Source: Rhizophagus irregularis (lineage: Eukaryota). From it: 64,000 nt of DNA. Made by a program: the position numbers and the translations under genes. The stretch covers positions 2,108,001 through 2,172,000 of the forward strand of contig NC_089435.1 in assembly GCF_026210795.1 (NCBI RefSeq), in the 5' to 3' direction. Position 1 is the stretch's first letter. Every line of letters begins with the position of its first letter. The notes below the pieces were generated by a model. The model did not search any database. It saw nothing but the letters and a program-made list of their open reading frames with translations, and was not told where the DNA came from. This document shows, in pieces, positions 1,721 through 45,148 of the stretch.

Positions 1721-3511
1721 AAATTTCTTTTGATATTGTTAAAAATGAGATGGTCATGCTGGCAGAACTTAATAGATTTCTTGTGTAAGGAGACCTGGAT
1801 CTTAATGATGATGGTTTAGAGAGATTTGTTATCCTATAATCAGATTCTGATAATCAAATGGTATTGTTAATCGAAAACCAAAGTAACTTTTGGCTTGAAG
1901 ATATCTTAGGAGTACGATGTTAAAATCGGTTTTGATTTTTCGCGATATAAATGTAGATAAAGCTTGTGCGTGATATTTTCATTAAATAATATTGAAGGAA
2001 ATAATATTGAAGGAAATAAAACCTTTTATATATTTTTTTGTTGTACAAACTATTATGTAATATTGAGCACAAAATGTACAAAAAGTTAAATTGCAATGAC
2101 TCATATACTTTATTTATAATAGTTACATAGACTGATACAAGTTTACTCACAATAAATAAAATTCACATTTATTTTTTAATATTAATTCAACATGTGCATA
2201 TTATTCAAAATACAGGACGAATCCGATTCAGTTAATGAAAATTTGATCAAAAATCGAAAAGTTGTTTTCTTATTAATTATTTTTCTTTATCAGCCTATCG
2301 GAATGATACAATCGACCGCAGAATATTTTTTTAATTTTTCCTTTTCGGTATTTTTTTCTAAAATTTTTTTTCGAGGTTTTCTTTTTTTATCTCCTTTTTT
2401 TTTTGAAAAGAAATTTTTTTTTTGGTTTGGCTTTTTTTTCCAAACTGAAAAATTTTTATTTTAAATTTTTTTTTTCGAAATTTTTTTTTTTTTTGTTTTT
2501 TTTCGAAAAATTTTTTTTAACCTTTTCTTTTTTTGGTTTGGTCATTTTTTTTCAAACTAAAAAAAAATTTTTTCCCTTTTCTTTTTTCGGTCTGGTTTTT
2601 TTTAAACCGAAAATTTATTTTTTTTCCATTCTTTTACCATTTAGGTTTGGATCAGTGATCGGATCGATGCTACGACTTACTCATAGTATCAAAACTATCA
2701 TACCAAAAATATTGTATATGTCAAAATATTTATTTATATGGAATGTAAATATCATAAATTGTAAATAACATTGTATTTAAATTGTATTTATAATTTATAT
2801 CATTTCAATATCGTTGAAATATTAACTAATTCTTATCTTTTTTATCTTCATATACTAACGATATAATTCAAAATTATAAATAAATAAATAAAAAACCTTA
2901 AATTAATATTATATAAAATCTAATATACCCAAATATAGATCAGAAAATTTTATTTTTATTATTATATTATTAATCTTGTTACGTTGTATTAAAAAAATAA
3001 TAAATTAAATGTTTTTTTTATAATCTTGTTTATTATTTATCACGTTGTTTATTTAAAATAAATTCAATTGAAAATGAACTAAAGAAATTTGACTTTAGTT
3101 GTTTATATTGAATTATAAGTATGATTTAAAAATACAAGTTAATAGTCTATTAAATAATTTTTGTTTGTTAAATTATTTAAATTATTTGAATACGATATTC
3201 ACTAAGTTTAATTACCAAATTTTGTTAAACACAAATTGTGAAAAAAATAAATAAATAAAAGTATACTAAGCATAGTAAGAAAAAAAAATAGAAAGTAGAA
3301 ACATATTATATCAGAAATGCGTTTACGCGAAATTATATCAATATATTTTCCTTTTTTGGTCATGAGGCGTCAAATATTACGCCTAAAGGTTACAAATTTA
3401 TGTGGGCACAACATGAAGTTTGATCAACAATTTGCATTTTATTAATTTATTACGGTTTGAATGAACGAACTTAAAATAATTCTTTCTTTTCCTTAATTTA
3501 TAAATTACATT

Positions 3512-5812
3512 ATGTCCACTCTTCGATATGAATTAATTACTGCAACAGTTAATAGAGCAATAACATTTACAGATAGTAATATTTACAATGATATACACAA
3601 ACGATTTGAATTTCAAAAACAAACAGTCCTTGCTGATAAAATTCTTACAAATGATGAAAAAACTGAAGCAATAAGAAAATTAACTAAAACTCATGATCGA
3701 GATAAAGTTATTTTTAATGAAGGAACAAGAAGAATTTGTGAAAATTGTAACCAAGAATGTTTAGCCATATTATATTGTGAATATTGTATCCGAAATTATT
3801 TGAAAGAAAATTTTTCAAATTGGACATCTGGGAATGATGATATTGACAATTTAATACAGAAATGTCAAATGGAATCACTTAATCCACAAATGATAGTTGA
3901 ATGGATCCCATATAATAATTTGAAAAATATTAATTATTTGACAAAAGGTGGATTCTCTGAAATCTATACAGCGGGTTGGATTAATGGATATTATGCAGAA
4001 TGGGATTCTGAAAAAAAAACAATTAAAAGAGTTAAAAGATCTGGAAGGCAAAATATAGTAATAAAAGTAGCACTTAAAACGTTAGAAAATGTTGAAGGTG
4101 CAAATCAAAGTTGGATTGAAGAGGTTTGTATAATTTTATTTGAAATCTATTTATAAAAATCTTGTTTTTGTATTAACAATAGCATTGTTGTCATTTAGGC
4201 TAAATCACATTTAACTATAAGTAATAAATGGTCAGGTGTTGCTCGATGTTATGGTTTAACACAAAATCCATCAAATGGATATTATATGCTTGTAATGATG
4301 AGAATGGATATAGATTTAAGAAATTATTTACAACAAAATCATAATCAACTTACATGGAAAGATAGAATGAAAATTATTTATAAAATATCTCATGCACTTT
4401 ATTATATTCATAAAGAGAAATCAATTCATAGAGATTTACATTCTGGAAATATATTATATTCACAATTTAATGATAAGTGGTATATTAGTGATCTTGGATT
4501 TTGTGGACCTGCTGATAAATCTTCAACAGGTATATATGGAAATCTTCCTTACATAGCACCCGAAGTTATTGTTGGAAGAGAATATACTTTTGCATCTGAT
4601 ATTTATAGTATTGCAATTCTTATGTGGGAAATTTCATCTGGACAAACACCATTTATAAATTATGAACATGAAAATGATATTGTAATGAATGTTATTAACG
4701 GTATAAGACCAAAAATTGTGCCAGGAACTCCATTAGAATATAAAAATTTAATGAAAGAATGTTGGGATGCTGATCCATTAAAAAGACCTGACGCTGCCGC
4801 ACTTCGTAATAAAATGAAAAGAATTAATTTAGATTATCAAAATATGTCAGATGAATTATTCAAATCAGAAATAGATAATTTAGAAATGAATAAAGTAGAA
4901 GAAAATAATACAAGTAGCAGATTATTAACAAGTAAAATTCACAACTTTGAAAATCTACCTGAACCAAGAAATGCAACAGAAGGTATAAGTGTATAATATT
5001 TATTAATGAATGTATTTATTTTAAAATACATTATTAATGTTATCTTTTATTATAATAGAAGAACAAGAAGGTATAACCGTATAAATAATAATTTCTACCA
5101 TTTTATTTGGTTTACTATAATAATTTACTTTATTTTCACTACTAACAGCGTTTCATAGTAAATTGTATGATTTTAACATTCCTAACAATAGTAAGTATTT
5201 ATTAACATTACAGCGTTGAATTATCATATAATAATGTTTAATAATTGATATTTATTTTAGTTAACGATTTTAATAAATCAAATGAGCAGGATAGTTCAAA
5301 AGTAGTTACTATTTTTGAAGGTAATGTATTTTAATTATTGTCAAATCAAGATTGATTTATATATTAAATCAATATCTTAAATTTTAGATAGTAATAAAAT
5401 CTTATCTAAATTATTTAAAAATTTGCAAATAAATTCAAATGGTAAGAATAGTAATAAAGTACTAACAAATAGAATTCATTATTATATCAATTTCATTTAT
5501 TTATTAAACGCGACTTTTATTTAAATTTAGATGATGAAAAAGAAATAACTCGACAACAAATAAAAGGGCAAAGTATTAATGTCGATGGTAGGTGAAAATT
5601 TTATATAATAACAAATAATCCTTATACTATTTTAAGTATATTTATTTTCTTATAGATGATGACGAAATATATAATAATCCAAATTTTCATTCAAAAGAAC
5701 AAGATGAACTGGAAATTCCTGATGGTAAGTTCTTAAATAAATAGGATTTCTTTTTAAAGCAACTTAATTAATTTACTAATTTGTTAATTTTTTACCTTTA
5801 GATGGATTTTAA
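3512..5812 (+). CDS. Tyrosine-kinase-like (TKL) protein kinase, 9 exons: 3512-4123, 4199-4982, 5059-5070, 5149-5190, 5261-5320, 5388-5441, 5531-5587, 5656-5724, 5802-5812
   Basis: CxxC..CxxC zinc region and WTSGN motif, KGGFSEIY, VALK, HRDLHSGN, DLG, YIAPE, SDIYS; GT-AG introns read by eye give an open frame ending EIPDDGF-stop. Confidence 0.88.
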
Positions 5813-14208: not shown

Positions 14209-16113
14209 TTATTAAAAAAGTGTAATAATCTGTTGAAAAAAACCACACTTTTATAATTATAGCTATAAAAAAAGGGTGGTTTCATTGTAACTAATTTATT
14301 TATAGTTATTAAATTGTGGCTTTAGTTCTTTTAACTAATATTAACATATGAATTTAATTGTAGATTATTTTCATTGTGACGTAAATGATGATCATCTTTC
14401 GATTTTCAATTTGTAAATTTATTTATTTTTTTTTATTATTAATTAAAAAAATGTGTAATTTATGGGAAAAATCACAATTTTTAATTTAATTAACAAACAA
14501 ATAAAAAAATACAATTTTATTAATAAAAAAAAGTACCTTCATTATAACTAATTTATTTATAGTTACTATATACAAGTTTCAATTTTTATAACATGTGAAT
14601 CAAATTTTAGATTATTTTTTACTTACTGTGACGTAAATGATGATCAACTTCAATTCACGAAATTTATTTAAACAACTGCTGTCCAAAAAACAATCAATTG
14701 ATATATTGAAATTGAAATTGAAATTGAAATTGAAATTCATTGCAATGAAACGAAATTTCAATTATGTTTATATATATTTTATTTAAAAACGGACCCTGTT
14801 TTGCCATATTTGCTAACCAAATTAGGACCTACTTCCTTCCTTTTTTGGAATACAACTTATTATTATAACGGCCAATCACAATAAACAACACTATGAAATT
14901 TAGATCATCTGAGTGCTAACAACTTTGTATCGTGATCTGTATATATTGATAAATATATATTCGACATGTTTGATATTGATCAACAATCGCTCTGATGATC
15001 GTTAAAAACCAAAAATCCACAGAAGAAATTTTTACTAAAAAACACATTTCTTTATAGACAAGTGTCGATTTTTTCACCAATTTTGGTCTCTACGTTCTTC
15101 TCGGAACATTATCATATGAGTTTTGCTATAGGGAAAAAATTTTTGAAAAAATTTCTTAAAAATTTAGAAAAATCTTATCGCCCTGTTACTAACGACGAAG
15201 ACATATATCTTACATATTCGTCTCCCAATAAAAGAAACAATATGACTTCCAGTCAACCTGCAGGTTCTTCTCAAACTGCTCATAACACCATAACGGACAC
15301 GACTATGGAAGAGGCATTATCCACCTCTCCCACTCATATTCTCTCGCACAGCGAAATCGAACTTACATCACGTGACTTACAGGAAAATGATATTCACACG
15401 CAAACACCAATCACTGAAAATTTGACTTTTATGGAGGAAGATCCTATTGAACCTAACCCCGATAAGGGGAAATCACCAGAAACACAATCAGCCACACAAA
15501 TAAACACTCCTAATCCGGTACAAATCACGGTGCTAAATGATATTTTTAAACAGACACCACAAGCTTCAAACAAAGCACACAAAGGATTTATTCCTAGAGA
15601 TAGTTTCCCACCGAAACTTTCTAACAACGAAATTATCAATCTAATAAAGACGTCATTTATCAAAGACAGTAATGCTTTTAGATTTGATGTTAATACAACA
15701 TCCACATATAGATACTTTACTATTCACTTCAGAACACGTGACTCACTTGTTCAATATATCGAAAAAAGTCCTGACAACCTCAAACACATAAAAATTTACG
15801 AACTCACCAATGAGACTATCAACACATTAATTGAACGCAAATTCGCTAATTTAGACCAGGCCGTCATAAAAATTATGGATATCCCATACAACTACGATAC
15901 ATCCATGCTCATCAAGCAAGGACCCCGAAGAATATATAAATAACTCAGATCCAAATTTAAATTTTAATATGTTCTTTATACATTTAATTTTTATTAATAG
16001 CTTTATACAAAATCAGCATATAAGTTCTAATCCTATTATAATTTTATACAACTTTACCTCTAAGTTATAAATTCTATGCAATTATCTGAATTACTTCTTT
16101 TTGATTAAAAAAA

Positions 16114-19100
16114 TTATAATGAATTTTTGCTTTGTTTAATAACTGAAGAGTATTATCATCAAAAACCTTTATATCTTGCATGTTTAAATGATAAATAACA
16201 TTTTTTGGATGTTGATGAGTAATTAAAAAACATCCCTCCTCTGTTAAAGCTGAAAAAATATTACGTATAGGAGTAAAAACTTTGAGAGTTATATATGATA
16301 TATTTTCAATGTCTGTAATTGGTTCTTGATGATAACTATAATATCCATATGCTTCATAAAAGCTAGAAATTACTTGTCCAATACAAAGTTGTAATCCAAA
16401 AACAACTAGAATAAAATCTTGCTCATTAAGAGGATTATGACTATTAATATTTGCTGATTCAATATTTTCAACTATAAAATGAAAAAATTATTTTAATAAT
16501 TTCTAATAATATAATAAACTTATTCAATTTATACTCACTTAAATTTTTATTATCAATTAAAATTTTTTGCCGTTTTTTTGATTGCCCCTTTTCATAAAAA
16601 GTAGCAAGAGATTGGCTCATAGTTTTTCGCTCATTTTTCCATCTCTTTTCACGTTGTTTAACAATTCGCATTTCAGCATTTTCATTTTTACTAAAAAATG
16701 AGACAATATGATTTGCTTGATTAGGTTTAATTAAACCAGATTTGCATAATTTTGTACTATTAGTTTTAATTGTACGTTCAATATTGCGAGAATTATAAGC
16801 ATTATGCTTCTCACGTTGATACACCATTTCTTGAAAATCAATTACATTTTCAGTAACCAGTATAGTAGTATCAGTATTATTAATATCTTAAATTTAAAAT
16901 AAATAATATTAGTATCTATAAATAATTATTTATAAATTGTAATTCTTTAACATTACCTGTATTAATTATACTTGAATCCAATGTTTCATCTATATCAATA
17001 AAAGAAAGTTGCTTTTGACATTCATTTAAAGACAAATTTTGACTATCTTTATTTATGTTTACTTTTTCCCTTTCATTTTCTTTTTGTCTTATAAGATTCA
17101 CTTCTTTAGCCGCATAACCAATTATTTGAGAAAGATCAAGATTAGAAAAATTCTCATCTGAATCTTGCATGCATTCATCATGATTATCTGAACCAGATAC
17201 TTCTCCATCATTAGGACCTATTAAGATATAAGGCCGAAGTGAATTAATAGGTACAATATCGGGAGTCAACATTCCTAGAAATTCAGCAAGATCACATGCT
17301 AGTTGGCGTGACTGATCAAATGCATGATGAATTTGAATATCATTTGGCCAAGATCACAATATATTCACTTGATCAAATTCAATAATTTCGTTATTATATT
17401 CAAATTGATATCCTATCAAGTAAAATAATTAATTTATTTATATGTTAGCTATAATCATTATATAGTATTAAACAAAGGAATTTTTTTTACTTACCATCAC
17501 GTACAGATTTCTCTTTATTGAAAGACAATTCTTTTGAATTTAATGCTTTGGTATAGTGGCCAATTTTTGGTACCATTTCTAACAACTCTGCAAAATCAAA
17601 ATCAGCATTAATTTGCCGTGCTGCTCCAAAAAAATGTTCACAGGCTTCTGAACCATGAATCCAAGGAATAAGAGGATATTGACTATAATAATCTCTATGA
17701 GCTTTTACAAGTAAAACTATTGATTCTGCTAATGAAGTCATTATTGCAAATGTTTGAGATGCAATAAAGTTCTGAGATACAGAAATAAATTCAGGATACT
17801 TTCGTGCTAATGTATTTATATGAAATCGCCAAATTCGCAAAAAAAAATAAGAAGTCATTGCCATTCTTATTCGTTCAAGAGGTGAAATATTTCTATTCAA
17901 ATAACTATCAACCAATTCACCTAATAAAATAAGATAAATATTAAATAAATATATTTAGTATATTTATATTTATAAACAAAAGAGTTGCAGTTCCTTACCA
18001 ATTATAAATAGATATATAAATGTGCCCTTGAATTCGGATTTGATCTTATTATTAGAATCAAGGCAACATGCCAAATTTTTAGGGCAAAAGGTTCGATAAG
18101 CTGCACCATCGTCTTGACGATCAAGCTTATACACATCAGACTTATACATGGGACTTTGGAGATGAGATAACAATTTTGTAAAATGATTAAATCCTATAGT
18201 AGAATGACCAAATGTGAGAGCTCGAGCACCAGACATTGCTGCATTACGTCCCGTCTTCTTAGCATGTTTAGGATCTTGAATTCGTACTATTGGTCCAATA
18301 TTTGGAAAATTGGACAACTGAAATCAATGTTATATGGTGTATAATTAAATCTAAGTCTATCGGAAGTTTTAATCTGTTAAATTTGAGTTTGTGCGTTAAA
18401 CTCAACTTGTGCACCATCAGAACCAATTGAGATTATGTGTAATCCAAGTTCCTGTGCAAAATCCAAAAGTAACTTATGTATATTGACGATTGATTCCGTT
18501 TTATCAGATCCATTGTTAGGAAGAAGAGCAATAATTACTGGAGGAAATTTTGGCAACGGAACCTAAATAGAATTTCGTAATGTTAACATAATTATATTTA
18601 ACCTGCCTTACCAATATATTAATAATATTTACCTGTAATATATACACTCTTACATATTTTGCAATAGAATTATTTTCCTTAATTTTGTTGATTACAAGTG
18701 GAATATCGTTATATGTTTTGATACTTGTCTCATTAACTGAAAATGTAGATCCAATTATGCATCCCATCTGCGATGAATATCGGAGGCGAGGTTTTAGTTT
18801 TGTATTGTCGGACATAGCTGCAATCGGTCCATCATAACCAATTGAATCCAAAAATCGCTTAAAACGAGCTACGTTTTCAAAACAAAGTGTTGGATCCGTT
18901 AATATATCTTCAGAATTAGAACGCAAACGCCTAAAGATTGTTAAAAAGCTTTATTAAGTTATTTTTTAAATAAAATGTACCAAGATAGTAATTTTATACC
19001 TGATATTCTGGATCGTTAAACCTTCTAAGTTTTGTCGAAATAAATTTAATGCATGCGGACTAAAGGTACCAAGTACTATGAGAAAGTTTTTAAATTCCTC

Positions 19101-20188
19101 AGAATATTTCAGGTTTTGTTTACCCTTATTTTTCTCTTTTTTAGATGCAACTTGTGTCATAATTTCACAAAGACCTGTAAAAACTGGTTTTTCTTTAAAA
19201 GCACCATTAATACCTTTATTTGCCAATGTTACCCAAACATCTGAAGCCGTATCAGAGTTATTGTCTTTGATAAGAGACCAAACGATATTAAGATCAACAT
19301 ATTTCAAATACTTTTTCAGAGGATCGTTTTCGAAATAGTGTTTTGGGATATGCTTCAATTTTGATTTTGGTGGTTTTACAATTGCAATTCGATTTTGTAA
19401 ATTCTTATCAACTTTTAAGCTAAGACATTCATTACAAGCACTTTTATCAGTATATCCTGCGCAATTCATTGAACATACAGAATTACCTTGATTAAAGATA
19501 TTTTATTAATATGTATATATACAGATTATATGAAACAAATAGCACTTCAACTTACAATCACGATCAACTCGCCATATTGCTTCTGAATATAACTGACGAT
19601 TCAATCGGCATTTTTGTGAATGAGTTAATCTCTTACGCGTAAATTTATTTGGAAAGAGATTAGGGAAAAGCTCCTTTGCTACAATTTCAATTCTTCTAGT
19701 TCCACCAAATTGAACAGGAGTACGACTGATATATTGGCGAATTGATCTAGATTTGAGACCAGGGCAAGGTTTCATTTATTGTTAGATAAGGTTATTGCAT
19801 CATCTTCACTACTTGAGTATTCATCCTCAATATCACTTTCTGTTTGTACTTCATTTTCTTCATCAACGTTAAACAAATCATCATCATCCATTCTATCATC
19901 ATCATCACTTTCCCATTCTTCGGCACTACTAACATCATCTGCATTTTCATTTTTTTCATTTTTTTCTAGCTTAGAAATTGGTTTATAAAAATTCAAGATA
20001 GATTGAACTCCTTGCTTAGCCAAACATCCTTTACCCTTAACGTGAATATTTAAAAAGGTTTCATCATAGCGACGACTAAGTTTAATAGTTTTACCACAAC
20101 GACAAATAACTTTCTTCATACGAAGTATGTGAGCGCAATATGGATGTTTTGCAAGTCTTTCCTTGCTATATTTCCAAGCAAATGGCAT
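16114..20188 (-). pseudogene. Multi-exon P-element/THAP9-like DDE transposase, inactivated (3' end approximate)
   Basis: Spliced exons (20188-19556, 19486-19000, 18930-18633, 18562-17999, 17920-17495, 17412 onward) give MSDNTK, IGSDGA, QDPKHAKKTGRN (DxxHxxKxxRN), DRQD and SEACEHFFGAARQ (ExxFGxxR); frameshifts near 19775 and 18310, in-frame stops near 18378 and 17354. Confidence 0.78.
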
Positions 20189-20269
20189 TTTAAGAAAAAC
20201 AAAAAGAACCAAAGTTTATGATAAAAATATGAAGAATTTTTAAAAATAAAACGTATAACAAGAGATGAA

Positions 20270-20378: not shown

Positions 20379-22192
20379 AATTGTATGATCACATTTTTTA
20401 TATATAGATATATACTAATAATGTATAAATGTATTTTATACAAATTAAAATCTGAATTGCTTTAAAAATCTATTTCCGTTATACAAACGTATACCTAACT
20501 TCTAAATTTACCGACTGATCAGATTATACAAATTTAACTTTAAGTTTCTAAAAAGTGATATAGTAACTTTATACAAACCTGAATCCCAGTTATATATATA
20601 ATCTTCGGGGTCCTATCAAGCACCTCGCCGTAAAACAGGTAGCAACGTCCTTGAATACAAGGAAATTAAAAAACCTCCAAGAAAAATTCCCAATCGCAAC
20701 AATCGCGGACGTACTATTTTCATAAAACCAGCCTACAAACTACTTATTGTCCAATTTGACAAACAGTCAGCATATGATTATTTTATGAAAGAAAACTATT
20801 GGAGCCTTGAAATCGAGAACTTCGTAGTAAGGATTTTACCTGGAAACCCTGACGACCCTGAATATAAAAAATGCACCAGCTGTTACTTTAAAATTACTGG
20901 ACTCCCCCTCAACACCACAGCCAAGGACATTGAACCACTTATCAAGCACGTCTATGGACGAACTTGTACATTCACACAAACCACCAAACACTCAACTATG
21001 AAAAACGCCTATATTTACATTTCACTGGATAACTATCCAGTTGACGCGATTAATGGCGCTTCCTCACTATTTGAAGGTTATAACCTCCACATCCTACCGG
21101 GTCATCTATCACTCAAAACGTGTAACACTTGTGGATCACCCCTTCACGAAACGAAAGATTGTGATGATAAAAACTTCGATACAGACCAATCTAATCGCAA
21201 ATTCTTCAAAAAATGATTTATTAATCGTAATGAAGAAAAAATTACAATCAGTGAAAACCACAGAGCCAGATATAATCACGTCATAACTCTAAATGCAAAT
21301 AAAAGTTCAAACACAACGTCACCAAATTATAAGTCTAGCCAACCACTAGCACGCAATTACAATAACAAAAATCCACAATCAGGCAGCTTGTTATATCCTC
21401 GTCAAAACAAACAACCATACAACCATACAAACCATGGCAATAATAGCAAAAATTATAAATATGACAATTCCTATATTGCCCCGCACTTGGACAATCCTCA
21501 AATGTCTACCACCAAAAACTCAGAACACAGAATTACCCAACTGGAACAACAAGTCCAATCACTCCTAGATAGCGTTAAGACACTTCAAGAAGGAAAAACT
21601 AAAGTCGATAGTACTATCGCCGATATTCACCACAACCATAATTTAATGAGTTCATCACTCAATGATATAACCACCAGACTAGACAAGTACGACACAATTA
21701 TACAACATCTCACGACTAACATTAACCTACTTAGTCAAGAAAAGATCGCACAATCAAAAGATCGCTCCATCAAATCACCAAAAAGAACATCACCATACGA
21801 ACAGTCTTTGTATAGGGCAGCAAAAACTAGATATAATCTAAGAGCAATAAACAAGGTAACATCACAGCGAAAGACAGTGAACAGCCCTTAGCAACTGATG
21901 AAGACACTGACGCCCCCGATGATGTCGTTATGTCAGACAGTGCCGTCTTTGAAGGAATCATTGACGAACTATCAAACACAACACCAACTGAGACTAAGTT
22001 CTCAGTTAAATCCTATAACCCTCTTAACCTCCTCCCGCAGTTTAATGCAACGCATTAATTACGTGTCTAGTATTAATACTATCACCTCCCCCTCTCTTTT
22101 TTTTGGATATACTTCTTGGATTTACCCATTTAGATATTAATGGCTTAAATATTTCGATTCACATATTCATACTTTTTTATACAATTTTTTTT

Positions 22193-25100
22193 ATGGAATA
22201 CACCAATTTGAAATCCCCGGCTGACCTCGAAAATCAGCCTTCTGAACCCATTTTACAATATTCTTATTCTAAATATAATAATAATACAAAAATACAAAAA
22301 AATCATAAAAAACCCCAAAATCACAAAAATATTAATCAAAATTTCCACCCTCCATACAACAATGACACATATACATCAAATTCACAAAATTACACTTGTG
22401 AATCTCGTAACGAAGAAGATAAAAACATGTTAAATTATATCGAATATAACATATTCGACGATAATGATACATTAGGGATGGCGTCTACCTCTCAACCACA
22501 CGACACCCCTATACCTTCATTCCCCCAATTACGTACACATTTCATTGATTACCATAAATTTGGTACAATTAATATTCAAGGAGGATTTAATAATAAATTA
22601 AATGATATTCTCCAATTTTTTACACTTCACAATTACGATATACTTATTTTAACTGAAACTGGTCTCCATCAATATACCAATATAGACATGGACCTTAATA
22701 AAACAATACACTCAATACACTCACTTCCGTCATTGAATAATGACAACACTAAACCAAATATTCATGTTTATACAGATAACAAAGGAAATACCAAAGGCAG
22801 TGGAGTCTCTATGATAATCACAGATCAACTGCAGAAACATATTATTAAAACCAACACTTTTTTTGGTCGTATCCTTACGGTAGACCTGTGCTTCAAAGGC
22901 AACCATTATATCAAACTTATATGTTGTTATTTACCAGCTAACGCCGTTGACGACAAGATTTAATTATTAAATGTTATAAGGAAATAGAGAATATTTTAAC
23001 TAACGCTATGCACAACCATTTTGAATGTATAGTTTTAGGTGATTTAAATATCAGCTTTGACAAATTGAAAAAATCCAATCATTATCCTATTTGGAGACGT
23101 GAAATTAAAACAATCCTTAAAAACTTTGGCCTTAAAGACTTACTCAAATCCTTTCACGAACGTCTATCACCAACACATAGTACCAAAAGAAACGATGGAC
23201 CAGATATACAATCTCGTATTGATTACATATTCACCTCATCCAACATTCTTCAACATAGTTTTTACGCTTATACTCATAGCATTTCTGAAGACCTTTTTAC
23301 TACAGATCATAAGGCTCTAAGTTGTTACTTGACTCAAGATTACTTTAGAAATAAATTCAATAGCTCTAGGAAAAGCTTAGAAAAATCACCCACGTACAAA
23401 CCTAATACCAATCCTCAAATTCGCTATAAATACCATTCTATGACCACAGAATCTTGGTCTAATTACAAACTTATCAACGGTATTATATATCGTCAACACA
23501 TTAACAATTCAATTTCACCGGACAAAACACCGGAACAACAAATTGAGTTCTATTGGTCTAATATCAAAGATATTATTAACCAAACTAAAGAAAAATGTAT
23601 TCCCTTTTCTGAATATAAGAAATACACGAAACATGATCATCCCCTTTGTTTAAGACAAAATAATAATAAAATACTTACACTTCGTACGATTTTACGAAAA
23701 TTCTCTAATATTAAAATTAATAGAATACAGGGTGATCACGACAAATGGAAAGATTACTGGAAACTTTGGGGTACACTACGTAAACAAATTTTGGTTATAG
23801 ACGTCCACTTTAATGCCAAACGTACTATTTGGTTACCAGTTAATTTGACGATCGATAATATATTTGACGTCAAAAAAGATTTACAAAGCCTTTTACGAGT
23901 CATTAATGTTTTACATAAACAGGAAGAAGATTCATGGACTATTAACAAAATTAACAAATATATTAACGATAGGAATAATAATTTAATCCACGACCAAAAA
24001 AGAATGATTAATAGTATCCTTGACCGTAAACCTCAAAAAATAACTTTAGATCGTTTACATTACTATGATCAACAAACTAATCAATTTCAATTTACTAATA
24101 ACCCACATATTATAGCAGAACAAACTAATTTACATTTTCAATGTTTAGGAAAAGACCTTAATGAAATTAGAAATATTAAAGAGTATAAGTCAATTCAAGA
24201 CCTCCCGTTATATTGGAGATCGACCTACGAACCCATCAACAATCGTAACTGTAAACATATGAATTCATTATCGGAGGATTTCTCAATTGAAGAATTATCC
24301 CAAGTCATTTCATCACTTCCAAATAATAAAGCCGCAGGCATCTCTGGAATTACATACAAAGACATCAAACATACCCATCAAGATTTCAGAGAATATATTC
24401 AACAATTTTTTAATTATATTATACAGGTCCAAATTTATCCACGGGATTGGTTATACGCATTTCTTTTCCCTATACCCAAACCAAAGGCTTGGGACTGTAA
24501 AATAGAAAACACACAACCTATAGTCTTGTTGGAAACATTTAGAAAACTATTTGTTAAAATTTTGACACAAAGGATTAACACTAAACTTATGACGTATAAC
24601 CTGATTAATGAAAACAATCGGGCGGGTTTGATGGGACAATCAACGTTACAACCACTACAAGTTATCCAACATATAATTGAATCTGCTTATAAGGACAAAA
24701 AACAGCTTTGGATTGGTTTACAAGACCTTAGCAAGGCCTATGATAGAGTTAATTCATCTCTATTGAAATTAGCTTTAGAACGCCTCCACTTTCCTGATAA
24801 AATTACCACTCTTCTAATATCCTTATTTAGTGATCGGAAAAATAATGTTATATTACCTTTTGGCTTATCCGCTGACTATGATGTAATTCAAGGCATAGAC
24901 CAAGGCGAAGTCATTAGTCCGATTTTATGGATTATTTATTATGATCCTATGTTTTCACACTTGTCACAATTAACGGAAAACTTACATATTACCCGTATCA
25001 ACAAAATTAATAATATATACTAACCGGATACAGACCTACAGATAGATTACTCATCGTCAGTGGTGGGTTACCTTGATGACACCAGTTGGTTTGCATCTTC

Positions 25101-28100
25101 CAAACTACAATTGGAATCAAATCTCCAAATAGCGAATTCCTTTTACGATATGGCGAATATCACCATTAATCATGACAAATATATTATCCTTACTAATAAC
25201 CCTAAATTTTGTAACAAGGATTTACAATTCCAGGTTACCCCTTCCAAATCAATTACGATTAGAACAGTGCCACGCACTTCGTCCAACCGAATTCTTGGAA
25301 TCTACATCAACGCATTTAATTCACATACGCCAACGTTAAAAAAGATTAAAAAAATAGTCAATCACTTCGCGTATACAATGCGTTTCAAGAAAATAACCCA
25401 TGACCACCTTATTTACATTATTAACAAAGTATTATTACCCAAATTGGAGTATATTAACCAATTCACTATTTTCACACGTTCACAATGTGATTCTTTATTA
25501 GCCCCAGTTAAAAAACTTTTCAAACAACATTTAAAATTACCAATATCTACACATAATAACATTATCCATAACAAACTATTTCCGTCTATCAATAGTTTCT
25601 TTTACAATCAATTTTATTCACATATATCAATAGTCAATGTTATTTTAGATACCCCTATGTTTTCCACTATTGGTTTACAAAAAATTTTTAAATACACAAT
25701 ATGATTTTTGGATCCCCAATTTTCCTACGTCCAAAGATTTAGCTAATCCTATTTCTTCAAATTATCAATCCCTTTTAACTCGACAATTACGTTTATTTAA
25801 TAATTTTTATATTACTTTTTACCACACTGTAATACATCTGTTTCTGGTGGTGGTAATTCCATAGTATCATATTTTAATTCACATCAGTTTCTCGACCCTT
25901 TATCAAGTAGCGACCTCCAAAGCTTGCGGAAAAAACGCATAATGTTCATGGACCAGTTAGCGTCCATCGATGGTTCCTACTTAAGCACCTGGAAAGATGT
26001 CAAAAAACAAAACCCTAAGGCAAATTTTAAAGGACCTACACCCAAGTGGTTTCAAAAACTTGAAAAATCCAACATTATTGCGGCCGAAAGTTCACGCTGC
26101 CTTTTACAAAATTTAATCGTTTCCCCGCCATCGTGATACGACTTTATGTCACCTCCTATATGAAAAGCATCTAATTACCGCCCTAAGAATGAATGGACTA
26201 TTTCTTGGGACCTTGTACACCAATGTGAATTATACGGCAAGACGATCGAACAACAGAATGACCTATATGATACTAGTCTTACTTATCAAACACATTATAT
26301 ACCAGTGGTAGACGCTGATACTAGATCCAATTTAACACCTAAAAAAGTAACACCTACGTTGCAGCCTTGTCCTGGACAATGTGGTCATAGTGTACCTTTC
26401 AGTAGCGATTTGCGTCCAAAATGTGTTATTGTTTCATTAACATCACATTTGATTTTTTTTAATGTTCATGCAAAAAAATTTATCCCTAATAAACAATTTT
26501 TAAAATTAGAAAAATCTTTTATTTTTCCAGTTACACCTTTACATACACTTCGTACACAAGCGTTTACATTTAGTAAACATAGATTAATTATACCCAATGT
26601 TTTACCTTCAACGGTCCCTATTTTATCCACATTAGATTCATACTTAAATGTGAATTCAGAAATATTCAATAATTCGATTAATTTAAATTTAAATATTTCT
26701 TCTTCTCTTTTCATTAATAATATATTTGTAGGAAATAGAGATCTGATTATTGAACTTTTAGAAATAGCTAAACAATTTTTGTTATGGAAAAATTTTATTT
26801 TTTATACTGATGGTTCTTTTTCTAGTTTAGATGTTACTTCTTCTACTCAAACTCAAATGGATTTTGCTTGGATAGAAACTGCTGATGCAACTCCTAATTC
26901 AGGCCCTCCTCCACCATCATACAAAGGCGCTTTATCTTTTAATCCATCTTCTACCAAAGCGGAAGTTTACGCTTTACTCACGGCAATTATTGCAGTACCT
27001 GATAATAGTGAACTAGATGTTTTCACGGATTCGCTCAATGTTATCCATACCTTTTATGTAGTCACGAACAAATTAACTTCTATAAGAAGAATTTTGAAAT
27101 GTAATAACCATTTAGCGTGGCGTTTGATCGATACCTTAATCACAAAAAAATCCTTGATTGTAAGATTACACAAAGTCAAAGCTCACTCCAATGACTATTG
27201 GAACGACATGGCAGATGGTTTAGCCAACGCAGCACGCCAACTTGCACCTTATGAAATCAACCCTACAAATTTACCGGGTTCATTAATGACCCCTATTTGG
27301 GCTTCTATAGCACCAATTGATCGCGACATTAGAAAATTTTGTCATAACTTAACAGATGCTTATACTTTTGATCAATTCTTGGGTAACCCTTCACTCTCAC
27401 CTATTTTCGATAGATTTCCCTTACCCTCAATACATTGGCCTCTTACCTGAGCGTGGTTACAATTTAACTCCACGCCCGACGTATGTAGTTCTACCAAATC
27501 ATCACTCAGCGCTTTTAAAAGCAAAGCACTTAATCATATTCTCCCTTGTGGCGACGTTCTCACTAAACACTATCCTGACCTTTACCCTAATAATTACATA
27601 CCTTGCCCAGTATGTAACAATCATCAAGACACTAACGAACATTTGGGAATTTGTTCAAACCTTTTACCTATCATTAACAAAATTTTAATGGAACACAAAC
27701 GGATTTTACAAAGCCTCCTTGAGGAGAACACTTCATATGACCCCGTTCTCATTTCACAATCCATTGATCAATTCGAGCTCCTATCACCCATTTCAGGTTC
27801 AAACTCTTATAATCATCCTATATATTTAATTATACATCAACTTGTTTCACAAGATCTTTATAACCTTGTTCGTTCTTTTACGTTTAATGATAAACTTACA
27901 CGTTCAATTATATGGGACTTTTTAATATCACTACAAGAACATATTTATCAAGAAATATGGCCTAAACATTGTTCTTTATTGAAATTATGGGAACAACGCA
28001 ATGGAATTACATCCAAACGTAAACGTGATTTTCAAAGGAAAATACCAAAGAAGTCACGTGATCACCAATTAACTCAACCTACTGCTCGACCTAGAATTGC

Positions 28101-28446
28101 CTCTTCTTCTCAACACGGATCACAAAATCCTTCTCACCCCAGAGCTAGGACGAATTCCTCACCCTCTGATGGTATTTCTCGCCGTTCGTTTCACCTTTGG
28201 ACCTCTATGGTGCCGTCTACTCGTCCTTCTCACCTGCTGCATCTACTGATGTGGTTGATTTTGTGTACATGTAATTTTTTACATTCTGGTGGATGGTTGT
28301 TTCCTGTCCGGCATCCTAGTAGTTTCGAGTTAGATATAGATAATTTTCTTCTTCATGTAATTTTAGATTTAATTTTTTTTGTTCTTCTTTTTCGTTCGAT
28401 AGTACCTTCTAGACTCCCGGTTATGCCTGATTGTTCTATTGAATAG
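22193..28446 (+). pseudogene. LINE ORF2: AP endonuclease, reverse transcriptase, RNase H, C-terminal CCHC
   Basis: GTINIQG, ILTETG, GDLN, RIDYIF, TDH (APE); LQDLSKAYD, GIDQGEVISP, YLDD (RT); FYTDGS, AEVYA, FTDS, KVKAHS, N..AD (RNase H); CPVC...HLGIC; several stops and frameshifts. Confidence 0.92.
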
Positions 28447-28479
28447 TGGGCAAGACGACCCCTTCGGGCTTCTCCTGAG

Positions 28480-40658: not shown

Positions 40659-42289
40659 GATTTATAAATTTAAAAGAAGAAAAAGAAGTTAACTTTAATT
40701 TTTTGTTGTACAATTGACTTACAGTATATAAATGGTTGCTGTAGCTTGTTGATCTCAATACAACATATACGAGCATATCTTTACTGATGATCTAATTTTT
40801 AGCAAGTCATGTGAATTTTGATGATCTACCACCGGTCCATAGTTTACGCTGATTATTGAAATATTTATTATTATTATAATTATTATTTTATTGGATATCT
40901 TCAATTTTTAGAATATATTACATAAGAATATGGTTTAGATAGTGATTTAAGTAGTACTCAAAAGTGATTATTATAATAATTAAAAATTACGAATAATTTA
41001 GTAGAAAACAAAAAAAAAAATACTTTATATTTATTTCTATAGATTATTTTCCGTTGCTCAAAAATCCTTTAAATCTCAGCATCACAATTATATTAGTAGA
41101 ATTGATCTTGAATACAAATTCAAGAAAACGTAATTACAGATTTTAATTTGATAACTTTAATTTATTCTTTTTTTAACTAAAATGGGGAAGCATATAAAAT
41201 TCAGATTAAAGAACTTTTGAATATAAATGAGCTTAAATTTGTTAATTTATCGAGAAAAATCTGATACTGAAAAATTAACATTGTGTATACGAATCAACTT
41301 AGTTTTTTAACTAGATAAGTAAACTCAATTTTGTTTATTTTCGTAATATTTTTCGTTTATATGTGTAAAAGCAAATAAAATACGATAAGAAATTCTACTT
41401 TCTTTGTACCATTTGAAAGTAACCATGATTTCCGAAATTATGTTAACCAATAAATATTTAAATCACATGAATTTTAAATCACATGAATGTACCAACGTAA
41501 AATTTTACATGCTGCGTTGCTAAACACGAAATTAAAAGAAAAATGTCTTTTCAAGCATTAACGCTCAACTACTATAGTAAGAAATAACTAAAATATGGTT
41601 CGAAAAAAGGAATTCATATAAAGTTGAAGAAAGTATATCTTGACGACGGACGCGTTTTTATTAACGATATTCTATTAGGACGCAGTAAAAAAAGAAAACA
41701 CAAATGATCATTTAATTTCTTACATATCAAGATACATGTTTGCTTTATAAATTCGTTTTTTAAAAAATGAGTCATTGCTCGAATCAAAATGAACTAACTT
41801 GATATATAAATAAATACACAATACAATTTTTTTTTTAAATATATAAAGGTTTTCATGCTATCTCAATCTCAAATTTTTATTGGTTTAAAATTTTTTATTA
41901 TAGAAATCAAAATCCGCGCGCCGCAACAAATTAAATATGAGAACCAATTTCTTAACTTTATATCAATTATTACAGTAAAACTTTTTGAATTTAAATTTTA
42001 AATAAAAAACTATCTCATATCCAAAATCTTATTTTAACCCTATATTCTAGATCTTAGATTCATCTTTTAATCCGTTTCAATAATTCTATCAAATAAATAT
42101 TTAACAAAATTTCAATTTTTACCACTCATTTCTTATTATTTGTATATACTAAAGTTTGTTAATTAGTGAGAAATGTAATAAATAGGATAGTATTTATTTT
42201 GTGGATTTAAATTGAAATCCCAAATGATTTTCGCCCTAAATTTGTTAAAGAGTCCCTTAATATAAAAAAAATTAAATATGATTGTCAAG

Positions 42290-42347
42290 ATCTTAGACTA
42301 GAATCGAACTAGTCAAAGCATAGACATGCTCTCCACCAGGATAAGAT
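42290..42347 (-). ncRNA. 58-nt tRNA-like mini-cloverleaf (mascRNA-like geometry), not a canonical tRNA
   Basis: ATCTTA-TCC TGGT GGA-G-AGCAT GTCT ATGCT-TT-GACTAG TTCGATT CTAGTC-TAAGAT: four perfect stems, canonical 7-nt T loop, GG in the D-like loop. Confidence 0.6.
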
Positions 42348-42621
42348 TTAAAAAAAATTCTGTTTGCTTATTCTTTTAAACGCATAAGAGAAAGAAAAGA
42401 AACAGAAAAAGAAAAGAAACACCTTAAAATATGGAAGAACTCTAGAGCTATGACCTCAAACACCAATAGGCAAACTCAGAGAGATGCTATGGCTGACCAG
42501 CCGGAAGACAGGGGCATATGCTATGGGTTTATCACGTTTCCAATAAACCAAGGTCGTCTACAGTCACATTATGTATATTATACTATACAATGGTCTAGAA
42601 AGTTCAACCATCTTCATTATA

Positions 42622-43340
42622 CTGGTGACCAGATGTAAAACCTAGACATCACCAGAAATAATGGGCGTTTTTACTAATAAAACTGCAAAACAAACTCCTT
42701 TTGTACGAGAGAGATACCTCGTTACGCGTGACGACCAGATGTAAAACCTAGACATCGTCAGGAAATGGGCGTTTTTACTAATAAAACTGCAAAACAAACT
42801 CTTTTTATACGAGAGAGTACCTCATTACGCGTGACGACCAGATGTAAAACCTAGACATCGTCAGGAAATGGGCGTTTTTACTAATAAAACTGCAAAACAA
42901 ACTCCTTTTGTACGAGAGAGATACCTCGTTACGCAGATGTAAAACCTAGACATCGTCAGGAAATGGGCGTTTTTACTAATAAAACTGCAAAACAAACTCT
43001 TTTTGTACGAGAGAGATACCTCGGTATAAAAAAAGAGACCTCGTTGTAAAAAAAAGAGACCTTGTAAAAAAAAGAGACCTCGTTGTAAAAAAAAAGAGAC
43101 CTTGTTATAAAAGAAAATGTCATTATAAAAGTAAAAGAAAGATATTTAAAATATAAAAAACTTCGTTATAAAAGTAAAAAAAAATATAAGGTCGTTATAA
43201 AAGTAAAAAAAATATAAGGTCGTTAAAAAAAACATAAGGTCGTTAAAAAAAAAATATAAGGTCGTTAAAAAAAAATATTTAAGGTCGTTAAAAAAAAATA
43301 TAAGGTTAAAAAAAAAATATAAGGTCGTTAAAAAAAAAGT
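42622..43340. repeat. Four ~95-106-bp tandem hairpin-containing units, then short A-tailed units (GAGACCTCGTTGTAn, AAGGTCGTTAn)
   Basis: Units start at 42627, 42733, 42836 and about 42934; six AAGGTCGTTA copies between 43188 and 43330. Confidence 0.9.
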
Positions 43341-44169
43341 GCAAAAAGTGGTTTATTTATAAAAAAAAATAATCAGTGGGTTATAAGAATACGCTGATTT
43401 TATATTTGGACAGATTGATTGATTGATTTGATTAAAGGAGTATTTGGCTGATCCGCAGGACTGGCCTTCAATTGTATGTTGCGTAACAATTTTTAAAAAG
43501 TTATTCAAAATATGAGTAACTCAGAGACGTATCGGTCGTATCGCGCAATTTATCAAATATCAATATCAGCAGTTGCATCATGCACCATGACTAAATCAAG
43601 ACCTAGGCACCTAGCACTTTTAAATAATATACGGAAAAATGATTACAATAAGCGTAATAAAGGTCTAATACTTCAATTTTAAATATGTGTATAAAGTAAC
43701 GTGCGAGTTACACCTATGTTTAAAATTGCAATGACTCACTACACGATCTCCAAATAAATCAATAATTGTCATTGCGTAACAAATTATATGTGGTTTAGGC
43801 GGTAGTATGTTCTTGTGTATTTGTTACGGTATTGTGCTTTATTGCTTTTTAGGTATGAAACTTTAACCGGTATCAGGTATGCTTTCGATCTTACTAAACT
43901 TCTTTTTTAATTTAATTACCATTAAAAAGTTAGAATTTTTTTTTTATAAAATTACTGTAGTATTAATTTCGTCTATAATATAACTAATCATACCCACTCA
44001 AAGGTTATTCATATTCCTATGGTATTTCGGTACGATTGGCATCGTACCCATCGTACCTGTACATAATTAATAATACCTTACTTATTATATTATATTATAT
44101 CGTACCATACTACTTTACTATATACTCATGTGGTTTACGCATTCTTCATAATAAAATGTCACAAATTAG

Positions 44170-45148
44170 TTTTGAAATGAGGCCGCTGCGGTAAATTTTC
44201 TCATCAGATTCATTGATACAATGCCTGAGCAATCTTTCGATTTCATCAAGAAATCTGCTCTTTCCAGTTCCAGGTACACCGGCTAAGACGGAGATTGAAT
44301 GAAAGTAATCCACATTGCGATGTTCAAATCGCCTCTTAATCCCAAATATCGGTTTGCTACCATTCCAGAGGGTATCGATGGGGTCTTTTCGTTGATGAAG
44401 TTCAAAGTCTTTACCAAAGGTTTCAATTCAATTTTAGCCTGAGGAGCTAAGAAACACATAATTGAAAAGATAACAAAGCTAAAAGACATACTCAGTTTTT
44501 ACCACGTCTGAATTGTTGTATCCACTTGTAGATAGAAGTAACATCGTTTCAGTTAGGAACTAGAACCACTAATAAATAAGAGACTTGTTAGAGTTTTTTT
44601 CACCATAATCCCGCCACTGGTAAGTGTCTTCCAATGTTTTACCTCTCGAACTAGATATTTGCATCGAATTTGGTCTGATTGCTTTTTTTTTTCGCGTTAA
44701 AGCAGGTCCCTCCCAGTAAGGCGTTCCACAAGGTATCTGTAGCTAAATAACTTCGAGCATCTATTGGTTTGAAACGGTGTCTAATGTGGATGTTAGATAC
44801 TACAAAATTTTTAGTATCTAATTCATCTTTAAAATAGCCTTTTAAACGGTTTATTTCTTTTCTATGGAGTTTTTGTACAATGTACAGTATTATTCGGGTA
44901 GAAACACTTTTTATATCTTTTTTCTTGACATTAATTCTCCAAAGTATCATATCGCTAGTATTTTTAGAATCTTTCTTATCACTAAGAAATTCCCTGAGAA
45001 GTGCAACGGTCACTGTTCAACGGTGAATAATTTTAAAGGATATTTTTAATTTACCAAACTCGACGGAACTTCCATTTTCATTATTATAAATGGGAATTGG
45101 AATTAAACTATCAGTGTTTAGAAATAAACAATTAAATAATGCTTCCAT
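44170..45148 (-). pseudogene. Crinkler (CRN)-type N-terminal domain plus P-loop NTPase, degraded
   Basis: MEALFNCLFL... start, TVALLREFL...ILWRINV...IHI CRN-like signature; a frame absent from the ORF track reads DPIDTLWNG...RF...VLAGVPGTGKSRFLDE (Walker A at 44280-44257). Confidence 0.65.

Follow-up and report, generated by a model that had tools for sequence, protein, structure and literature searches.

On the minus strand of a 64,000-nt stretch of Rhizophagus irregularis DNA (hereafter the window; NCBI RefSeq assembly GCF_026210795.1, contig NC_089435.1), a 58-nt segment folds into a tRNA-like cloverleaf that cannot decode, and sequence comparison indicates that this cloverleaf is a real, conserved, multi-copy module of mycorrhizal fungi. 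The parts of it that have been kept are those that tRNA-processing enzymes read, namely the T loop and the 12-bp stack, and the decoding loop is free. The best explanation we can offer, which we hold with a little less than even confidence, is that the cloverleaf serves as an RNase P/RNase Z cutting signal, with cleavage being predicted, within long RNAs derived from repeats, and that it is convergent with mascRNA.

A non-decoding cloverleaf closes a tandem-repeat array

The segment had been picked out by a reading of the sequence alone, which described four perfect stems. Four stems do make up its minimum-energy structure, although one pair in the anticodon-like stem is a G.U, so that "perfect" has to be given up. 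The arms comprise a 6-bp acceptor stem, a 3-bp D-like stem with a UGGU loop, a 6-bp anticodon-like stem with a 4-nt loop, a single linker U, and a 6-bp T stem carrying a canonical 7-nt T loop. The fold therefore agrees with the 12-bp stack of 6-bp acceptor and 6-bp T stem, the canonical T loop and the 4-nt loops of the sequence-only reading, and it bears out the description of a non-decoding tRNA mimic. The mimic has the linker-poor four-way junction of mascRNA and menRNA and is conserved although its flanks diverge. The cloverleaf has neither the 7-bp acceptor stem nor the 7-nt anticodon loop of a canonical tRNA and is not detected by tRNA models.

Its folding energy is -16.2 kcal/mol (z -1.98), and 7 of 200 shuffles are as stable. 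When the whole window was shuffled with dinucleotides preserved, a T arm with a 12-bp stack and two inner hairpins appeared in 10 of 1000 shuffles, and the T arm and stack alone in 32 of 1000, as compared with exactly one such site in a structural scan of the real window. Because 10 in 1000 shuffled windows contain a comparable site, the fold is by itself modest evidence; chance origin is ruled out because the homologues described below are conserved.

ARAGORN made no tRNA call at the element, and Rfam at gathering score, applied to the whole window, gave no match there. A search of 41000-44000 with Rfam at E up to 10 likewise returned no match, so that the comparison with the mascRNA-menRNA and tRNA models that the sequence-only reading had named came back empty. 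Model R1 scores 85.6 bits on the cloverleaf, its sole strong match in the window, and finds no second copy there. A retroplasmid-type RNA like that of Mauriceville finds no support either: the sole reverse transcriptase found among the eight frames scanned is of the endonuclease-plus-RT kind (22951-25020), about 17 kb away, and no CCA is encoded at the cloverleaf.

Table 1 Features of the cloverleaf locus, in positions of the window
Feature	Position	Strand	Basis
58-nt non-decoding tRNA-like cloverleaf, the conserved module	42290..42347	-	Fold, paralogous reads, soil homologues
T8AA leader	42348..42357	-	Sequence; alignment A1
A-rich tract, specific to the locus type and not kept in soil homologues	42358..42377	-	Sequence, fold, reads
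Pair of U-rich tracts produced by tandem duplication of 17 nt	42391..42419	-	Tandem repeat of period 17; fold
Unique GC-richer segment upstream of the cloverleaf and tracts	42430..42640	-	RNA-labelled reads with strand bias
About four 103-nt tandem units, one hairpin each	42627..43022	-	Repeat analysis
T-rich 20-22-nt tandem repeats, head of the array	43014..43338	-	Repeat analysis
T8 run 18 nt downstream of the cloverleaf; possible Pol III terminator (putative role)	42264..42271	-	

The fungal DNA of the window is rich in AT and contains BTB-TLDc genes in tandem; one of the BTB-TLDc proteins is 98% identical over its full length to a Rhizophagus irregularis protein. At least four of these paralogues stand in tandem, with duplicated flanks, around the locus (6639-49116, minus strand). 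On the strand of the cloverleaf, the array extends upstream through the unique segment, the 103-nt units and the T-rich repeats, reaching about 43340, and is closed by the cloverleaf (Table 1). It contains no splice-site repeats, no transposon ends were found around it, and there is no long open reading frame at the locus. In the hairpin of the 103-nt unit (42620-42975, minus strand), the last copy alters both sides of the stem with pairing retained. The unique segment folds no better than shuffles (z -0.75), and an identity as telomerase RNA, SRP RNA or snoRNA, weighed against Rfam and the fold, found no support.

Just upstream of the T-rich array lie repeated CAAT motifs and a TATA-like box (43398-43435, minus strand), a possible Pol II promoter made of motifs that are common in AT-rich DNA; T8-like runs are also common in the DNA of the window. 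Farther away, several frames of a non-LTR retroelement-like region (20600-28450, plus strand) encode endonuclease and reverse transcriptase domains. Interrupted frames at 16070-20215 (minus strand), two of which gave no Pfam match, resemble a DNA transposase gene, and two short frames with a P-loop-like motif and no Pfam match (44146-45016, minus strand) are possibly pieces of a Crinkler-like gene. A weak C/D-box snoRNA-like match lies at 41072-41142 (minus strand; 17.7 bits, E 3.9, under the family threshold).

Soil homologues conserve the cloverleaf while their flanks diverge

A pattern scan of metagenomes returned 25 loci, 16 of which are true homologues; the other nine are chance matches (GC 44-62%, no cloverleaf, no model match). 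The 16 soil contigs represent about seven genomic loci, since they form nine groups of which two pairs merge by long matches. Near a soil homologue lies a transposase fragment that shares 75-76% identity with R. irregularis proteins. The contigs therefore probably belong to another member of the Glomeraceae, and a single species, or a few, may have supplied them all.

The match between the window and the soil contigs is confined to the cloverleaf and its T-run/AA leader. Over the core, the window is 83-86% identical to the seven soil loci, compared with 47-48% for a shuffled partner, whereas the flanks are near their null values, with 47-53% upstream against a null of 46-49%, and 39-46% downstream against 41-45%. 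When the soil loci are compared with one another, the core averages 96% identity and the flanks 59-61% (21 pairs). In an alignment of nine copies, none of the seven T-loop columns varies, and variation is confined to 2 of 12 columns in the acceptor stem and 3 of 12 in the T stem, as against 7 of 8 in the anticodon loop and 12 of 13 in the leader. All nine copies have the 6+6 acceptor/T stack, and all nine have the D-loop GG, although the second of these positions was restricted to G or A in the search pattern. Since segments of the D arm and T loop were fixed in that pattern, apparent soil conservation there is inflated; three copies found without it agree with the rest.

RNAalifold recovers the same four helices unaided, 97.7% of cells pair across the nine copies, and two pairs change on both sides. 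Covariation is not significant: the count of double changes was reached by 48 of 500 shuffles and the score by 42 of 500. Five of the nine distinct stem departures keep pairing, compared with 50% expected from random transitions, and four break pairs.

The pattern also gave six matches in viral contigs, which we rejected as homologues: one is a tmRNA end, one a partial tRNA-Sec match, one a mini-cloverleaf, and the rest chance. Tighter patterns found none in viral contigs and none in prokaryotic genomes, and model R1 found nothing in two endobacterial assemblies. The mini-cloverleaf lies in a GC-rich viral contig (L004, 1485-1560, minus strand), shares its D arm with the element, has a T stem of 6 bp, and scores 35.8 bits on model R1 without an Rfam match; it is probably independent, and the pattern that found it had the D arm fixed.

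Most soil copies lie in splice-site arrays, some carried by CACTA elements

The majority of soil cloverleaves are found inside T-rich splice-site arrays and on the same strand as these. In all 16 contigs, TTGTAG acceptor-like repeats number 7-18 on the strand of the cloverleaf and 0 on the other, and in the four contigs examined (L011, L012, L027 and L031) short units resembling exons and introns follow one another in runs. The exon-like pieces there are 16-65 nt long and stand between intron-like units of 70-140 nt; these arrays grade into acceptor-site repeats without donors, are rich in TTCGA and CTTCGG, and have CpG above expectation. No long frame was found in the array of L022.

At two of the seven soil loci (L011 and L022), the array forms a complete non-autonomous CACTA element, with CACTA-type terminal inverted repeats and a matching 3-bp target duplication. 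An inverted repeat of at least 231 nt, which could be an assembly effect, encloses a third locus; the remaining contigs either stop within the array or have no CACTA termini. The CACTA element of L022 carries two cloverleaves and, on the same strand, two 69-nt tRNA-like units (3451-3519 and 3953-4021) of a class also present in L010, L014 and L021. These units share 86-87% identity with a tRNA-Phe but have an anticodon loop of only 5 nt, and the second copy in L022 shows a double change from G1-C72 to A1-U72. Two tRNA shapes that are unrelated to each other, both unable to decode, are therefore found on one strand of these arrays.

The contig that contains the matched tRNA-Phe also has nad2-, nad3- and atp6-type genes (L034/L066; contig C543 of assembly G001, LXRJ01000112.1). 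Filed under Ca. Glomeribacter gigasporarum, this contig is, to judge from its gene content, likely host (fungal) mitochondrial DNA inside a bacterial assembly. We accordingly rejected a bacterial origin for the 69-nt class on account of the nad2/nad3/atp6-type genes, as well as the ARAGORN label "SeC (tca)" for these units, their match being a tRNA-Phe on a mitochondrial-type contig.

Read data contain further copies in R. irregularis and weak signs of transcription

Four of 24 listed runs were aligned to 41850-42715. In the three raw-read runs, 26, 20 and 30 reads aligned out of about 11 million each, totals that count all reads whatever their fungal share, from strains that differ from that of the window and, in two libraries, after poly(A) selection; most of the aligned reads fit partly. 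In each of these three runs depth rises on 42285-42350 and the reads run on into several different flanks, so that they stem from other loci or alleles. What the paralogous reads match is the cloverleaf and not its flanks, and homology among the read copies ends sharply at the cloverleaf. In two of the runs, two reads each join its 3' side to the 103-nt unit, which means that the cloverleaf can also be internal.

Five of the seven listed stem changes in these reads keep a standard pair (42297 together with 42313; 42313; 42318; 42331; and 42345 C>U, minus strand). Of the others, 42345 C>G counts neither way, and the closing pair at 42321 is both kept and broken. Three reads imply a double change from A-U to G-C in the T stem, and the anticodon loop shows substitutions and indels. 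The D-loop GG reads GA in 1 of 12, 4 of 7 and 5 of 8 reads (10 of 27 from other loci), whereas the two D-loop G residues are called essential in mascRNA/menRNA in the available text of PMC11693755.

Over 42430-42715, first mates of run X24 lie mostly on the plus strand, with depth up to 8.9 versus 2.3, and 42430-42640 is also covered by one contig of metatranscriptome X13. The strand bias of X24, possibly a DNA run, is a weak sign that fits minus-strand RNA upstream of the cloverleaf. On the cloverleaf itself reads occur in both orientations and most run on past it; no pile-up of read ends was seen in any of the four runs at depths under 15, in 150-nt libraries that could not capture a 58-nt RNA. 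The proposal that the cloverleaf marks the 3' end of a lncRNA is in line with the strand of the splice-site arrays in the homologues and with weak signs of minus-strand transcription. A strictly 3'-terminal position is not supported, since most homologues are internal to arrays and the L022 element has two cloverleaves along with two further tRNA-like units.

A predicted cutting signal and its alternatives

If the cloverleaf is a cutting signal, a Pol II transcript would run through the array, the D and T loops would form an elbow, and the 12-bp acceptor/T stack would set an RNase P cut before 42347, RNase P being described in passages of PMC4919913 as measuring the T-arm/acceptor stack. RNase Z would cut after 42290 or 42289 and a 58-59-nt RNA would be released, with sharp predicted ends at 42347/42348 and 42290/42289. 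The upstream RNA would be left with a U-run-plus-AA end, supplied by the T8AA leader, and U-tract-binding proteins could protect this end, as the behaviour of La and Lsm2-8 gives ground to suppose. Internal copies would split a long precursor and, because the cloverleaf closes the array at the window locus, it would form the 3' end there. The U-rich and A-rich tracts would be a local addition, which may or may not protect that end.

We consider it unlikely that the element works instead through internal Pol III signals, either as the head of a short Pol III RNA or SINE-like element or as a TFIIIC B-box site that insulates the arrays at the DNA level. We take its T loop to read as a perfect B box and its D arm as an A box with two departures, the T8 run downstream would suit Pol III, homology stops sharply at the cloverleaf amid several different flanks, and B-box-like motifs occur a few times in the soil arrays. 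However, the run of 5-8 T that lies just upstream of most copies would be expected to stop Pol III started there, and the acceptor stem is conserved, with one pair changed on both sides, when DNA-level binding needs neither. SINE families have been reported in R. irregularis (available text of PMC11075540), yet the sequence is absent from one supplement file of that paper, which holds tables and not the repeat library, and by inspection of the window and the 16 contigs we found no SINE body, tail or target-site duplication and no CCA encoded around the copies.

We give similarly little credence to the idea that the cloverleaf is a passenger, that is, a nuclear or mitochondrial tRNA relic copied along with transposon arrays, its copies being alike through a conserved source and recent copying. 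This would fit with the capture of mitochondrial tRNA-Phe by the same arrays, with the four of nine stem departures that break pairs, with the whole CACTA elements and 3-bp duplications at two of seven soil loci and with low expression, and the 3' side may be readable as that of an old 7+5 tRNA lacking G7. But co-copied flanks would be expected to be about as alike as the core, when the soil flanks reach only 59-61% against 96%, and the segment that is the D stem in a tRNA pairs downstream here, in a helix that is kept while its loop changes length. The lack of any Rfam tRNA match at E up to 10 and of an ARAGORN call also speaks against a relic, as does the search for a parent from which the element might derive by simple deletion, which yielded none among 63 distinct tRNAs (a bacterial, phage and partial fungal mitochondrial set). 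Still less probable, in our judgement, is that the full logic of MALAT1 operates at the window locus, with an RNase P cut, trimming of the spacer and a U.A-U triple helix that protects the end of an RNA of about 1 kb.

The case for that logic comes from the tracts upstream of the cloverleaf, which, with the T8AA spacer, lie where the sequence-only reading had placed them (U-rich 42419-42391, A-rich 42377-42358, spacer 42357-42348) and pair with each other as it had stated. In the fold, the A-rich tract forms 17 bp, interrupted by two bulges, with U-rich 42407-42391, which leaves 42419-42408 as a possible third strand, in parallel match, with up to 12 triples on paper; from this we infer, as a model, a putative triple helix at 42358-42419. 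The position of the cloverleaf at the close of the array is also as such logic would have it, and in all three raw-read runs the unaligned ends of some R. irregularis-labelled reads hold variants of the A-rich tract ahead of the cloverleaf, although other read copies have unrelated sequence there. Against this, a mirror-symmetric sequence duplicated over 17 nt yields the spare third strand automatically, the two U-rich strands are not connected by a hairpin, the energy of the tract hairpin is ordinary (z -1.25, 24 of 200 shuffles), and the RNA is rare in poly(A) libraries. Ten nucleotides separate the A-rich tract from the predicted RNase P cut, whereas the tract of MALAT1 abuts its RNase P site (available text of PMC8457004).

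The A-rich tract is absent upstream of the cloverleaf in 16 of 16 soil contigs, where any 15 nt hold at most 9 purines and 6 A, compared with 13 and 11 in the window. The triple helix therefore falls outside the conserved module, and we no longer count it, as had been proposed, as part of the processing element. What the soil homologues share upstream is the leader: their BLAST matches extend to 42359, and a T run followed by AA, AAA or AAAA is present in seven of nine rows of alignment A1, being missing in L011 and without the A's in L022b.

Beyond the cutting signal itself, a wider picture can be drawn, which we regard as doubtful. Arbuscular mycorrhizal fungi may possess a class of long RNAs peculiar to them, rich in repeats and splice sites, which non-autonomous DNA transposons have spread. 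Recruited tRNA mimics (the 58-nt fold and the anticodon-disabled mitochondrial tRNA) would punctuate these RNAs, and RNase P and RNase Z would cut them there into defined pieces, with a triple helix added independently at the window locus and MALAT1-style ends rebuilt in this way outside vertebrates. MALAT1 and NEAT1 are called the only lncRNAs that mature through the tRNA-processing machinery in the accessible part of a 2025 survey (PMC12941219). If the cutting signal is real, this strategy would have arisen again, in a fungal nuclear module, and cutting would be separable from protection by a triple helix. It would also offer a handle on the unclassified repeats (PMC11075540) and unannotated small-RNA loci (PMC8647823) of R. 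irregularis, as far as the available text of these papers describes them.

Comparison with known systems

The element is undescribed in Rfam and in the available text of the literature, including R. irregularis genome papers, though repeat libraries or subscription papers could hold it. In form it resembles mascRNA and menRNA, whose arm sizes and missing tRNA linker residues are described in the accessible portions of PMC11693755. Shared by all are a non-decoding cloverleaf of about 58 nt, a small D arm (its GG being present in the nine aligned fungal copies but GA in 10 of 27 reads), a compact anticodon loop, near-absent linkers, a canonical T loop and an acceptor/T stack of 12 bp in total, made up as 7+5 in mascRNA/menRNA and as 6+6 in the fungal element. 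The two differ in context, since mascRNA and menRNA belong to the 3' ends of vertebrate MALAT1 and NEAT1_2 (PMC11693755, PMC8457004, PMC12941219 and PMC10869381, available text), whereas the fungal element occurs in many loci, often internally and several per array, with low read counts. Eleven of the 16 homologous contigs were searched with the Rfam mascRNA/menRNA model at E up to 1, and none matched. The two also differ in the A-rich tract, which abuts the cut in MALAT1 but stands behind a 10-nt spacer in the window and is missing from the soil contigs. As MALAT1 is limited to jawed vertebrates, according to passages of PMC10869381, any shared function would be convergent; we likewise regard convergence as the best reading of the likeness to mascRNA, and do not place the fungal element in the MALAT1 family.

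Anole lizard and fish have MALAT1-like loci (Zhang et al. 2017, as cited in the available text of PMC10869381) that offer a parallel in that a tRNA-like processing module has been copied to many transcripts, but those copies are described with a triple helix and a tRNA-like part, while the fungal ones consist of a cloverleaf and a short leader. The ENE triple-helix elements that transposon RNAs of plants and fungi contain (Tycowski et al. 2016, via passages of PMC13541005 and PMC7583470) are likewise U-rich RNA elements in fungal mobile DNA. An ENE, however, binds the poly(A) tail and is described without a tRNA-like part, which is the very part conserved here. tRNA-derived SINEs and stand-alone TFIIIC B-box sites have a tRNA-like head or B box in dispersed copies, but the fungal element differs from them in the T run directly upstream and in having kept its acceptor stem.

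The t-elements of plant mitochondria, whose cloverleaf ends mark RNase P and RNase Z cuts (Forner et al. 2007, PMC1920247, available text), are also non-canonical cloverleaves with a conserved T arm, and their cuts may lie at either end of a transcript. They are organellar and stand beside mRNAs, whereas the fungal element is nuclear and lies in non-coding arrays and transposon cargo. By analogy, these cut signals without a triple helix would be the closer functional model for the fungal cloverleaf.
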